A DNA stretch of 58,191 nt from Candidatus Zipacnadia bacterium (lineage in GTDB: Bacteria; Armatimonadota; Zipacnadia; Zipacnadales; UBA5352), in NCBI GenBank assembly GCA_029820295.1, contig JALGVA010000009.1, forward strand, positions 1 to 58,191. Reading direction: 5' to 3'. Made by a program: the position numbers and the translations under genes. Positions 39,225-46,150 of the stretch are shown in pieces. Below the pieces are notes generated by a model, which did not search any database, was not told the origin of the DNA, and was given only the letters and a program-made list of their open reading frames with translations. How positions within the stretch are numbered: the first letter of the stretch is position 1; every line of letters starts with the position of its first letter.

Positions 39225-42200
39225 GTGTCCGACACGATCCGCATCCGCGGCGCCCGCCAGCACAACCTGCGGGACGTCGATCTCGACCTGCCCAAGGGCC
39301 GGCTGATCGCCTTCACCGGCGTCAGCGGCTCGGGCAAGTCGTCGCTGGCCTTCGACACGCTCTACGCCGAAGGGCAGCGGCGCTACGTCGAGTCGCTGTC
39401 GAACTACGCGCGCCAGTTCCTCGCCGACCTGCCCCGCCCGGACGTGGACGAGATCGATGGCCTCACGCCCACCATCGCCGTCGATCAGGCGGCGCGCAGC
39501 CACAACCCGCGCTCGACCGTCGCCACCATCACCGAGATCTACGACCACCTGCGCGTGCTCTACGCCGCCATCGGCGTGCCGCACTGTCCGCAGTGCGGGC
39601 GCGAGATCGGCAGTCAGTCGCGCGATGCCATCGTGGCGCGCATCCTGGCGCTGCCCGAGGGCACCCGGGCGATGATCCTGGCCCCGGTCGCGCGCCGGCA
39701 GAAGGGCGAGTTCCAGGACCTGTTCGAGGACATGCTGCGCCGCGGCTACGCCCGGGCGCGCGTGGACGGTGAGGTCATCGAGCTGCGCCACGCGCCCGAG
39801 CTGGACCGCCGGCGCTTCCACGACATCGAGGTCGTCACCGACCGCGTGACCGTCGGCGGCCGCCAGCGCGCGCGCATCGCCGACGCCGTCGAGCAGGCGC
39901 TGGAGCTGTCCGAGGGCACCGCGATCTGCGCGGTCGAGGGCGGCGAGGAGCTGATGCTGTCCGCGCGCTTCGCCTGCGCCGACTGCGGGCTGAGCTTCGA
40001 GACGCCCACCCACGCGCACTTCTCGTTCAACTCGCCCAAGGGCATGTGCCCCGACTGCGACGGCCTGGGCGAGCGCCGGGAGCTGGTGCCCGAGCTGCTG
40101 GTCACCCATCCCGAGCGCTCGCTGCGCGGCGGCGCCATTCCCCTGATGCGCTCGCTCTCCAACGCCCGCTGGCGGCACTGGATCGAGGGCGTCGCGCAGC
40201 ACTACGGCTTCACCATCGACACGCCGTGGCAGGAGCTGAGCGAGGAGCAGCGCCACCACCTGCTCTACGGCTCCGGCGGCGAGCTGATCGAGTTCTACTT
40301 CCGCCATCCGCGGCACGGCTGGGAGTGGCGCCACGCCGATCCGTGGGAGGGCCTGCTGGCCTCGCTCATGCGGCGCTACCGACGGCTGCGGGCGCCGATC
40401 TTGCGCCGCGAGTTCGAGGCGGCCATGCGCACCGGCACCTGCTCGACCTGCGGCGGCCGCAAGCTGCGCCCCGAGAGCCTCGCGGTCACCATCGGCGGCG
40501 CGTCGATCGCGGACCTCGCGCAGATGACCGTCGCCGACGCGCGGGCGTTCTTCGACGCGCTCGAGGTCACCGGCGCGGAGGCGATGATCGCTGAGGACGC
40601 GCTCAAGGAGATCACCGCGCGCCTGCGCTTCCTGGGCGACGTGGGGCTCGACTACCTGAGTCTCGACCGCACCGCGCCGACGCTCTCGGGCGGCGAGGCC
40701 CAGCGCATCCGACTCGCCGGGCAGGTGGGCAGCGGGCTGGTCGATGTGCTCTACATCCTCGACGAGCCCAGCATCGGCCTGCACCATCGCGACCAGGGCC
40801 AGCTCCTGAAGACCCTCGAGCACCTGCGCGACACCGGCAACACTATCGTGGTCGTCGAGCATGACGAGCAGACCATCCGCGCCGCCGACCACGTGGTGGA
40901 CTTCGGCCCGGGGGCCGGTCAGCGCGGCGGCGAGGTGGTCGCCGAGGGGACACCGAAGCAGATCGCCCGCAGCGCCGCGTCGCTGACCGGCGGCTACCTC
41001 TCCGGGCGGCTGCGCATCCCCATCCCCGAGCGCCGGCGCAACGGCAACGGCGAGCGCCTGGTGCTGCGCGGCGCCCGGCACAATAACCTGCGCGACCTCG
41101 ACGTCGAGTTCCCGCTCGGGCGGCTGATCGCCATCACCGGCGTCTCCGGCTCGGGCAAGAGCTCGCTGGTCAGCGACACGCTGCACCCGGCGCTCGCGCG
41201 CGCGCTCCAGGGCGCCCAGGCCGAGCCCGGCGACCACAACGCCATCGAGGGCCTGGAGCACCTCGAGAAGGTCGTGCTCATCGACCAGGACCCCATCGGC
41301 CGCACGCCGCGCAGCAACCCCGGCACCTACGTGGGCGTCTTCGATCACATCCGCGCGCTCTACGCCCGCCTGCCCGACTCGCGCCGGCGTGGCTGGCGGG
41401 CCGGGCGCTTCAGCTTCAACACCGAGGCCGGGCGCTGCCCCGCCTGCAAGGGCCACGGCGCCATCAAGCTCGAGTCCGACTTCCTCGCCGACGTGTGGGT
41501 CACGTGTGAGGCCTGCGGCGGCCGGCGCTTCGACGCCGAGACGCTCACCGTGCGCTACCGCGGGAGGACCATCGCCGACGTGCTCGAGATGGAGGTGTGC
41601 GAGGCCATCGAGCACTTCGGCAACATCCCGAAGATCCGGCACATGCTGCAGATCATGACGGACGTGGGCCTGGGCTACATCCGCATCGGCCAGCCCGCGC
41701 CGACGCTCTCGGGCGGCGAGGCGCAGCGCGTCAAGCTGGCCGAGCAGCTTGTGCGCCCGCGCTCGGGCCGCAGCCTCTACATCCTCGACGAGCCCACCAC
41801 CGGCCTGCACTTCGCCGATGTGCAGCACCTGCTCAACGTGCTCAACCGCTTCGTGGACGAGGGCAACACAGTGGTCGTCGTCGAGCACCAGCCGGACATC
41901 GTCAAGAGCGCCGACTGGGTGATCGATCTCGGGCCCGAGGGCGGCGCCGAGGGCGGGCGCATCGTGGTCGCGGGCACGCCCGAGCAGGTCGCCGCCTGCC
42001 CCGAGTCCCACACCGGCGCGATGTTGCGCGAGGTGCTCGGCGGCGGGGAGATCGAGGGGGCGGACGTGCGTTCGGCGCGGCGTCGGCGCGGGGTGAAGAC
42101 CGGGGACATCGAGGTCACCGGCGCGCGCGAGCACAACCTGCGCGCCATCGATGTGCGCGTGCCGCGGCACAAGCTGACCGCGATCTCCGGCGTGAGCGGC

Positions 42201-45488: not shown

Positions 45489-46150
45489 GCGAAGACTGGG
45501 AGTTCCCGCCCGCCGCGTTGTTCACGACCGTTGCAGTCGCGCCATGGCGTAAGCGCTCGGCGCGCATCGACGGCAAACTCGGCGACTGGGACGACGGCCA
45601 GCTCATGGCGCCGTTGGGCGAGCTGGCGGGCGGCGAGGAGTTCGCGCGGGTCTACCTGGCCTGGAACGAGGGCGGGCTCTACGTCGCGGTCGATGTCCCC
45701 AGGGACGAGCCGGTGGTGACCAACCGGCAGAACCCCCGCGCGGGCGATGCGCTGGAGCTGCTCATCGACACTCGCGGCGGGCGCACCAGCCACCGCGCCA
45801 CGCAGTTCTGCTACCACCTGTTCGTCCTGCCCGCCCGGCCGGGCAGGTCCCGCGGCGACCCGATGATCTGGCAGGCGCGCATGCGGCGGGCGTTGCAGCG
45901 CTCGCCCGAGCCGGACTTCGGGGCGATCCGCCTGGCGGCCGGCCTGCGCGATGACGGCTATGCGGTCGAGCTGGCCTTCCCGCCCGAGTCGCTGCACGGC
46001 TACGAGCCTGCGGAGGGGCTGCGCATCGGCATGGCGGTCGTCGTGCACGACATCCGGCGCGGCACGCAGTACTGGGGCACCTCGCGCGACTTCCCCTGGG
46101 ATCGCGACCCGAGCACCTGGGGCCTCGTCGAGCACGGCCCAACCGCATGA
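45485..46150 (+). CDS. cytoplasmic CBM9-like / DOMON-like beta-sandwich protein (hypothetical)
   Basis: 221 aa; ARIDGKLGDWDDG...LYVAVDVPRDEP...DALELLID...GYAVELAFP resembles the CBM9_1 domain. No signal peptide. Its ATGA start overlaps the uvrA-like stop. Confidence 0.45.
   Translation: MSEDWEFPPAALFTTVAVAPWRKRSARIDGKLGDWDDGQLMAPLGELAGGEEFARVYLAWNEGGLYVAVDVPRDEPVVTNRQNPRAGDALELLIDTRGGRTSHRATQFCYHLFVLPARPGRSRGDPMIWQARMRRALQRSPEPDFGAIRLAAGLRDDGYAVELAFPPESLHGYEPAEGLRIGMAVVVHDIRRGTQYWGTSRDFPWDRDPSTWGLVEHGPTA

Follow-up and report, generated by a model that had tools for sequence, protein, structure and literature searches.

A 58,191-nucleotide stretch of DNA from a Candidatus Zipacnadia bacterium of the phylum Armatimonadota (contig JALGVA010000009.1, positions 1 to 58,191; hereafter the window) encodes, in a single gene, a 2087-aa protein that consists of two complete UvrA units followed by a C-terminal domain (hereafter C-dom). 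The stop codon of this tandem uvrA gene overlaps the start codon of a gene for a 221-aa protein related to the carbohydrate-binding modules of family CBM9. A probability only slightly better than even (about 0.55) is assigned here to the interpretation that the tandem protein is an SOS-controlled single-chain UvrA dimer that serves as the damage sensor of nucleotide excision repair (NER) in this lineage, with the C-dom as an adaptor and the CBM9-like protein as an accessory subunit.

According to this scheme, the two ATPase-competent class I UvrA units, connected by a short linker, would form the head-to-head UvrA2 assembly within one polypeptide, and the resulting single-chain dimer would act as the NER damage sensor of the cell. 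The tandem uvrA and the overlapping CBM9-like gene would constitute one damage-inducible operon transcribed from a promoter with a LexA-type operator. The C-dom, located at the single free C-terminus of the dimer, would be a docking or adaptor module, as its fold class and near-neutral charge suggest, and the CBM9-like protein would be a stoichiometric accessory subunit of the tandem UvrA and its C-dom, a role to which the translational coupling and a linkage across two phyla point.

UvrA is the entry point of bacterial NER and, to our knowledge, a dedicated accessory subunit of this type has not been described for it; none was found in the literature searched. In at least two phyla, the sensor would be a covalent dimer with an unnamed C-terminal domain that is well folded in the model and, in large clades, would be accompanied by a dedicated, co-translated partner whose family comprises over 2000 sequence clusters. 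If the partner indeed binds UvrA, a new NER component would be added, a widespread mis-annotation would be corrected and two new Pfam-type families would be established. A natural single-chain UvrA dimer also permits asymmetric mutation of its halves, by which the split of labour among the four ATPase sites and two UvrB-binding domains could be addressed. The features of the locus, with coordinates in the window, are as follows.

39117..39145, plus strand: sigma-70-like promoter (TTGACG, 17 nt spacer, TAGAAT; 10 of 12 consensus positions), about 80 nt 5' of the uvrA start
39124..39137, plus strand: CGAACATATGTTCC, a LexA-box-like operator that fits CGAACRNRYGTTYC perfectly and lies between the two promoter hexamers (-35 and -10)
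39211..39214, plus strand: GGAG, a motif resembling a ribosome-binding site 10 nt before the GTG start of uvrA, by direct reading
39225..45488, plus strand: tandem (single-chain) uvrA, 2087 aa, GTG start, from open reading frame (ORF) calling and UvrA family models
39225..42059, plus strand: UvrA unit 1, aa 1-945, complete class I architecture, 52% identity to E. coli UvrA
42060..42095, plus strand: short basic inter-unit linker, aa 946-957, between the unit boundaries
42096..44930, plus strand: UvrA unit 2, aa 958-1902, complete architecture, 48% identity to E. coli UvrA
44889..45485, plus strand: C-dom, aa 1889-2087, with a conserved motif at 45015-45044
45485..45488, plus strand: ATGA stop/start overlap of uvrA and the CBM9-like gene (translational coupling)
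45485..46150, plus strand: CBM9-like beta-sandwich protein (Pfam CBM9_1), 221 aa, without a signal peptide by inspection

Two UvrA units in one polypeptide

The G+C content of the window is about 70%, so that long spurious ORFs are common, and the tandem uvrA itself is overlapped on the antisense strand by ORFs of 1142 and 1031 aa. The codon-position G+C of the uvrA frame (0.74/0.49/0.95), however, is that of genuine genes, matching the neighbouring ones. The N-terminus of the product aligns with the N-terminus of E. coli UvrA. Two stretches of the protein are matched by each of the NCBIfam models NF001503 (2544.1 bits; cut-off 1147) and TIGR00630 (2471.1 bits; cut-off 729.8), as well as by the Pfam domains UvrA_inter, the UvrB-binding domain (PF17760, E=1.4e-62), and UvrA_DNA-bind, the insertion domain (PF17755, E=2.7e-43). 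Alignment to E. coli UvrA demonstrates that all four sets of Walker A, signature and Walker B motifs are intact in this protein and its orthologues, and that all 11 aligned Zn-site columns (E. coli C120, 253, 256, 277, 280, 406, 409, 740, 743, 763 and 766) are occupied by Cys in every unit examined, here and in the orthologues. Judging by family-model scores, ATPase and Zn motifs and domain set, the 2087-aa protein is a class I UvrA. The original prediction, made from the nucleotide sequence without database searches, had described a single uninterrupted ORF containing two complete UvrA units, with four Walker A sites, two sets of Zn-finger and signature domains and apparently retained UvrB-binding and insertion regions in each unit, and had noted the ATGA overlap with the downstream gene; the frame, the family models, the motif alignment, the twofold Pfam matches and the ATGA at 45485-45488 are in agreement with it on all these points.

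Canonical UvrA is a homodimer of separate chains. Each unit of the window protein has the full domain set and motifs of the canonical class I UvrA (E. coli b4058; TIGR00630), at 48-52% identity; the difference is that the two units reside in one chain, supplemented by the C-dom and a coupled partner gene. Units 1 and 2 are 51% identical to each other. Identity to E. coli is 44% for the UvrB-binding domain of unit 1 and 37% for that of unit 2, and 34% and 24%, respectively, for the insertion domains; this greater divergence of unit 2 in both domains hints at a division of labour between the halves.

The fused frame is found well beyond this contig. All 15 species-representative genomes that carry the CBM9-like gene have a long UvrA frame directly 5' of it, complete at 2092-2124 aa in 10 cases, cut by the contig end in four and broken in one, and independent metagenome contigs encode tandem UvrA products of 2088-2108 aa. 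In a neighbour-joining tree and an identity matrix of the separated units, the first units group together and the second units group together across Zipacnadia and planctomycete-type proteins. Because the units group by position across phyla, the duplication is ancient and shared, not an assembly join; sequence comparison has thus shown the tandem duplication to be old and common to Zipacnadia and Planctomycetota. The explanation that two adjacent uvrA genes were joined into the 2087-aa ORF by an error of assembly or sequencing, a concern of the original prediction, could draw on related assemblies with broken frames (loci L002, L003, L007, L016, L147 and L148), but the breaks are frameshifts or deletions inside conserved motifs, typical of assembly errors, and ten independent species genomes together with many metagenome contigs keep one frame (2092-2520 aa). 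Given these orthologous frames and the orthology of the units by position, such an artefact has a practically negligible probability. A free-standing C-dom "gene" in L007 was likewise rejected, being the product of a deletion or frameshift within the ABC (ATP-binding cassette) module.

A fused double UvrA has been described as the UvrA of Planctomycetes, in Tuwongella immobilis and its relatives (Front Microbiol 2021, PMC8567305), and in T. immobilis it was detected in the proteome along with UvrB, UvrC and UvrD, only in the fraction soluble in sodium dodecyl sulfate (SDS) (PMC8567305). The SDS-soluble (membrane/insoluble) fractionation of all four T. immobilis UvrABCD proteins differs from the situation in E. 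coli (PMC8567305). The same study mentions neither a C-terminal domain nor a partner gene (PMC8567305). The planctomycete proteins resemble the window protein in that two complete uvrA genes are fused, the units are orthologous by position and the C-dom belongs to the same family; a subset also has the same CBM9-like gene directly 3'. They differ in that there are usually two C-dom copies, whereas the window protein (Armatimonadota, Zipacnadia/WS1) has one, and in the lack of a LexA-type box, which in Zipacnadia is located in the promoter, with the ATGA overlap present in nearly all members (see below). The original remark that duplicated UvrAs are essentially uncharacterised needs correction: the tandem UvrA is not an obscure paralogue, since in Planctomycetes the fused protein is regarded as the UvrA (PMC8567305). 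The searchable literature does not contain the label "class III UvrA", and searches on duplicated UvrA, UvrA with CBM9 and the Chlamydia fusion yielded nothing beyond the T. immobilis study. Thus, the tandem UvrA architecture is already known, and the elements that appear undescribed are the C-dom family, the CBM9-like partner and the putative LexA-type control in Armatimonadota.

Three other candidate assignments were considered and rejected. The chlamydial tandem UvrA (NF001885/PRK00635, a model of 1809 positions) is also of double length, but the window protein scores 1429.5 bits with this model, far below the cut-off of 3054, and accordingly is not the chlamydial equivalog. We infer that the chlamydial protein lacks a C-dom, as 1809 positions leave little room beyond two units of about 940 aa each, the size in E. 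coli. The class II UvrAs (DrrC, Ecm16, UvrA2) have neither the UvrB-binding domain nor the first Zn module and act outside NER against DNA-binding drugs (PMC9328131); they are comparable to the window protein as UvrA-derived ATPases with non-canonical partners or targets, but class II identity was rejected because both units of the window protein contain these two parts. The match to mad3 of the MADS anti-phage system (PADLOC, E=3.7e-171) covers the ABC modules only and reflects generic UvrA homology; no other mad genes are found beside the tandem uvrA, where the neighbours are housekeeping genes.

In the complete 8.4-Mb genome of Planctomyces sp. SH-PL14, the protein annotated as "excinuclease ABC subunit UvrA" (1096 aa, P0062) starts inside unit 2, which suggests that the tandem uvrA of this organism has been split or mis-started in annotation. 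Splits of tandem uvrA genes may be commoner in public annotations than in the genomes themselves.

The C-terminal domain

The C-terminal extension, which had been originally described as having no recognisable family, matches no Pfam family and no sequence in the PDB, and NCBIfam models match only the UvrA tail; to that extent the description stands. It is not an orphan, however: a word-indexed search returned a single relative, whereas HMMER, run in full over 1.84 billion representatives, returned 161 clusters with a C-dom (E<=1e-3), and the domain is a conserved family found on UvrA C-termini. A rebuilt profile recovers 151 clusters, among which 61 have UvrA directly upstream of the C-dom and 87 are fragments without N-terminal sequence. 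Every C-dom protein long enough to judge is a tandem UvrA (P0074, 2343 aa; P0096, 2334 aa; P0060; P0079), and the named members come from Planctomyces sp. SH-PL14, Planctomycetota and Phycisphaerae. Most planctomycete-type proteins contain a full C-dom and a shorter second copy, and Zipacnadia proteins contain one copy. By these sequence searches, the C-dom represents a true domain family that has not been described before and is specific to tandem UvrA.

Two unusual proteins were encountered in the same searches. P0183 (503 aa) combines a partial C-dom-like segment lacking the PWExDG part with ankyrin-like repeats behind it and has no UvrA in front; this is the only non-UvrA context of the C-dom seen. 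P0066 has an ABC-transporter transmembrane region before the C-dom and may be chimeric.

In an alignment of 37 sequences (A1), the residues P43, W44, W51, H52 and R155 are invariant, and the family motif is PWExDGRxWH. Structure prediction of the extension, which had been proposed originally, gave a confident fold: with the A1 alignment, the AlphaFold2 model reaches a mean local confidence score (pLDDT) of 94.2 and a predicted TM score (pTM) of 0.82, and with the single sequence the pLDDT is 49.6. In the predicted fold, a helical N-terminal segment precedes an alpha-beta3-alpha-beta2-alpha sandwich. Foldseek comparison of this model with the PDB and BFVD yielded nothing significant; the top ranks were held by the peptide-binding type III secretion system (T3SS) chaperones SycH and SycE (E=0.02, not significant). 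The best fold matches are proteins of the YjbR/MmcQ family, which may share the fold but show no sequence similarity. Membership in the YjbR family (PF04237) was rejected at the sequence level, as there was no Pfam match for several members of the C-dom family, and also at the profile level, where hhalign of A1 against E. coli YjbR gave a probability of 0.3%. There is no sequence or profile similarity between the C-dom and YjbR/MmcQ (PF04237, DUF419), YdhG/DUF1801, frataxin/CyaY or the T3SS class I chaperones, and the C-dom differs from the YjbR/MmcQ-type folds also by its extra N-terminal helical segment with the invariant PWExDGRxWH and by a family composition that is not basic overall. In E. 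coli K-12 (NC_000913.3, 4270658-4273871), yjbR (PF04237) is convergent to uvrA, with 34 bp between the stop codons; this arrangement may be a coincidence, though it recalls the placement of a YjbR-like fold behind UvrA in the tandem protein.

Proteins of the fold class to which the C-dom model belongs are used in DNA binding as well as in the docking of proteins. The median net charge of the family is 0, the window copy is acidic (net charge -6, isoelectric point 5.1) and only one basic residue, R155, is invariant. With modest confidence, charge thus favours a docking or adaptor module. The competing possibility is that the C-dom is an extra DNA-binding ("double-wing") module that raises the affinity for DNA or anchors the dimer, with the partner acting independently. 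Not only the charge and the single invariant basic residue but also the Foldseek ranking, in which peptide-binding T3SS chaperones come first with no significant match, and the absence of profile-level similarity to YjbR argue against such a module, which we consider rather unlikely.

The CBM9-like partner protein

The partner was originally characterised as a CBM9_1/DOMON-like protein of 221 aa without a signal peptide, and this description is supported by a Pfam CBM9_1 match (PF06452) of 33.4 bits, above the gathering cut-off of 23.4 (E=5.3e-8), and by inspection of its N-terminus, which is acidic, with neither an n-region nor an h-region by eye. Profiles of the partner family match both beta-sandwich halves of Thermotoga maritima CBM9-2 (1i82; E=8.5e-6 and 3.1e-8), and 7 of 13 diverse family members reach Pfam CBM9_1 at E<=0.01. 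A profile search places at least 2261 clusters of 217-220-aa proteins in this family, labelled "hypothetical" or "sugar-binding"; no NCBIfam model names it. The homologues with taxonomic names belong to Armatimonadota, candidate division WS1 and "Candidatus Zipacnadia". One short entry, P0029 (304 aa, from a 2.1-kb contig), has a 5-formyltetrahydrofolate cyclo-ligase domain (PF01812) before the CBM9-like part and represents either a fusion or a gene-calling artefact.

In TmCBM9-2, the reducing end of the sugar is held by an aromatic clamp formed by Trp71 and Trp175 (PMC8280721). Alignment to 1i82 indicates that the clamp is not conserved in the partner family: the Trp71 column is variable and non-aromatic (R85 in the window protein), and Trp175 lies inside an insertion that the family lacks. 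The homology to the T. maritima Xyn10A module CBM9-2 (1I82/1I8A/1I8U; PF06452) spans the two halves of the beta-sandwich and takes in the C-terminal DPSxW/F strand. That module is attached to a glycoside hydrolase, whereas the partner is a stand-alone, apparently cytoplasmic protein of 217-221 aa, not appended to a carbohydrate-active enzyme, and its family has invariants of its own (window numbering): W60, G64, R97, R104, C109, G172, D189, D208, P209 and W212, among which R97, R104, C109, D189 and D208 distinguish it from CBM9-2. A peptide at the N-terminus, EFPPxxLF or LLPxRFLFRF, is also conserved. The Arg, Asp and Cys residues of the pocket, together with the lost clamp, argue for a ligand other than the end of a polysaccharide.

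The original prediction saw in this pairing an accessory for the recognition of DNA lesions or modified DNA. The conserved gene pairing and the LexA-type box (see below) would favour this idea, and the lost aromatic clamp counts against recognition of the sugar type. In its most elaborate form, the partner would be a re-tooled sugar binder (clamp lost, Arg/Arg/Cys/Asp pocket gained) that functions as a damage-reading or substrate-selecting NER subunit: docked on the C-dom, it could read a nucleotide signal or a damaged or modified deoxyribose or base (such as abasic or oxidised sugars or glycosylated DNA), and would thereby broaden or gate the range of substrates cut by UvrABC during the SOS response. 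So specific a function is improbable on the present sequence evidence.

A different role for the whole locus would follow if the tandem UvrA were a specialised paralogue that clears or confers tolerance to a genotoxin or adduct, with the partner binding the small molecule or adduct and the C-dom, by its putative MmcQ/YjbR fold, providing an extra DNA contact. There are precedents, in that class II UvrAs act outside NER on DNA-binding drugs (PMC9328131) and the YjbR/MmcQ proteins, the best fold matches of the C-dom, are predicted DNA binders (PMC7641849); the CBM9/DOMON-type fold is a ligand-binding scaffold in which polar Arg, Asp and Cys invariants are kept, and the UvrB-binding and insertion domains of unit 2 are somewhat diverged. 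However, the UvrB-binding domain, the absence of which defines class II, is kept in both units, which are each about 50% identical to E. coli UvrA; the gene lies among housekeeping genes, with no biosynthetic cluster around it; the C-dom shows no YjbR sequence similarity and, as noted above, has a net charge of about 0 in the family and is acidic in the window copy; and the fused planctomycete protein is treated as the UvrA of UvrABCD (PMC8567305). Altogether, a specialised paralogue of this kind seems a fairly weak contender next to a tandem UvrA that would function in NER.

Gene linkage, putative SOS control and neighbourhood

The association between the partner gene and tandem uvrA was assessed in both directions. 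Metagenomes were scanned for the C-dom motif with a degenerate nucleotide pattern whose spacing excludes Zipacnadia, and 80 loci were obtained, all with a true C-dom; the CBM9-like gene is immediately downstream on the same strand in 28 of the 67 loci that have at least 700 nt of downstream DNA, so that a linkage confined to Zipacnadia was rejected. In the reverse look-up, the partner gene follows tandem uvrA in 15 of 15 species genomes, 5 of 5 Zipacnadia contigs and 3 of 3 planctomycete-type long contigs, that is, in all 23 cases with inspected context. The ATGA junction is kept in 13 of the 15 species-representative genomes, and the overlap with the partner gene is present also in a divergent lineage with a single C-dom (29% C-dom identity). 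In the C-dom tree, partner-linked genes belong to at least three deep clades, between which C-dom identity is only about 25-35% and the flanking genes are wholly different; another large clade is without the partner. Thus, the co-occurrence that had been originally proposed as a check is observed, and the CBM9-like gene appears to be an undescribed dedicated neighbour of tandem uvrA far beyond this window, and a functional link is thereby made more credible.

The simplest alternative is that the CBM9-like gene is functionally unrelated to UvrA, being a small gene packed behind uvrA and inherited by synteny. The entire Zipacnadia neighbourhood is indeed syntenic (trypsin-like protease, transaldolase, uvrA, CBM9-like gene, HEAT, queA, tgt), so that linkage inside this class is weak evidence by itself; many of the sampled loci lack the partner downstream (see below); and locus L149 tolerates, at 7674-8888, an ISL3-family transposase that is encoded on the other strand and lies between the CBM9-like gene and an intact tandem uvrA of 2364 aa. 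Because the transposase separates the two genes, strict co-transcription must be dispensable in at least one genome. Synteny does not readily account, however, for linkage in deeply diverged clades with different flanks, for the placement of every context-inspected family member directly after tandem uvrA, or for the conserved start/stop overlap, and an unrelated neighbour is accordingly deemed unlikely.

Transcription of the putative operon would start from the sigma-70-like promoter, in a region where two promoter-like sites were found against 0.3 expected. Between its hexamers lies the operator-like sequence CGAACATATGTTCC, the sole match to CGAACRNRYGTTYC in the window even when one mismatch is allowed; the consensus CGAACRNRYGTTYC is what we take to be the B. 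subtilis-type LexA (SOS) box. The arrangement TTGAC...CGAAC-N4-GTT[C/T]...TAnAAT recurs upstream of tandem uvrA in 13 of 13 orthologous Zipacnadia loci, and in a control set of planctomycete-type tandem uvrA genes the LexA-type box was found upstream of none (0 of 17). From the motif and its recurrence, both genes appear to be under SOS control in Zipacnadia; as they would form one operon behind a promoter that carries such an operator, DNA damage would raise the synthesis of both products at the same time. The 193-nt gap 3' of the CBM9-like gene was searched for a hairpin resembling a terminator, and none was found.

Several observations weigh against the combined scheme of an SOS-controlled tandem UvrA with an adaptor domain and an accessory subunit. 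Taken on its own, the box match in the window is not significant, at least one match being obtained in 43 of 100 shuffles, and the argument for LexA binding proceeds from where the motif lies and from its recurrence in the orthologous loci. Among the sampled loci with tandem uvrA, about 58% (39/67) have no CBM9-like gene immediately 3' but keep the C-dom, which cannot exist only for holding the partner unless the latter is encoded elsewhere in those genomes. Among the representatives, there is no Rosetta-stone fusion of the C-dom with the CBM9-like protein. Finally, no canonical uvrA, uvrB, uvrC or lexA is present within the 58-kb window.

The remaining genes of the window are of the housekeeping type. 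Two of them encode HEAT-repeat proteins (46344-47879 and 8428-10182, both on the minus strand); the former faces the CBM9-like gene in convergent orientation, is kept as a neighbour in Zipacnadia loci and is followed by queA, tgt and a THUMP methyltransferase gene. Between the transaldolase-like gene and uvrA, there is an ORF for a 253-aa NYN-domain protein (38238-38999, plus strand; Pfam E=2.5e-10) that matches the PADLOC candidate defence family HEC-09 (E=6e-39) and has its own promoter-like site at 38194-38223. Its G+C content is 0.61, with 0.77 at third codon positions, against 0.72 and 0.95 in the neighbours, and it is absent from this position in the related loci L001, L004 and L005, where the corresponding interval measures just 150-420 nt; the NYN-domain ORF is probably a recent insertion.

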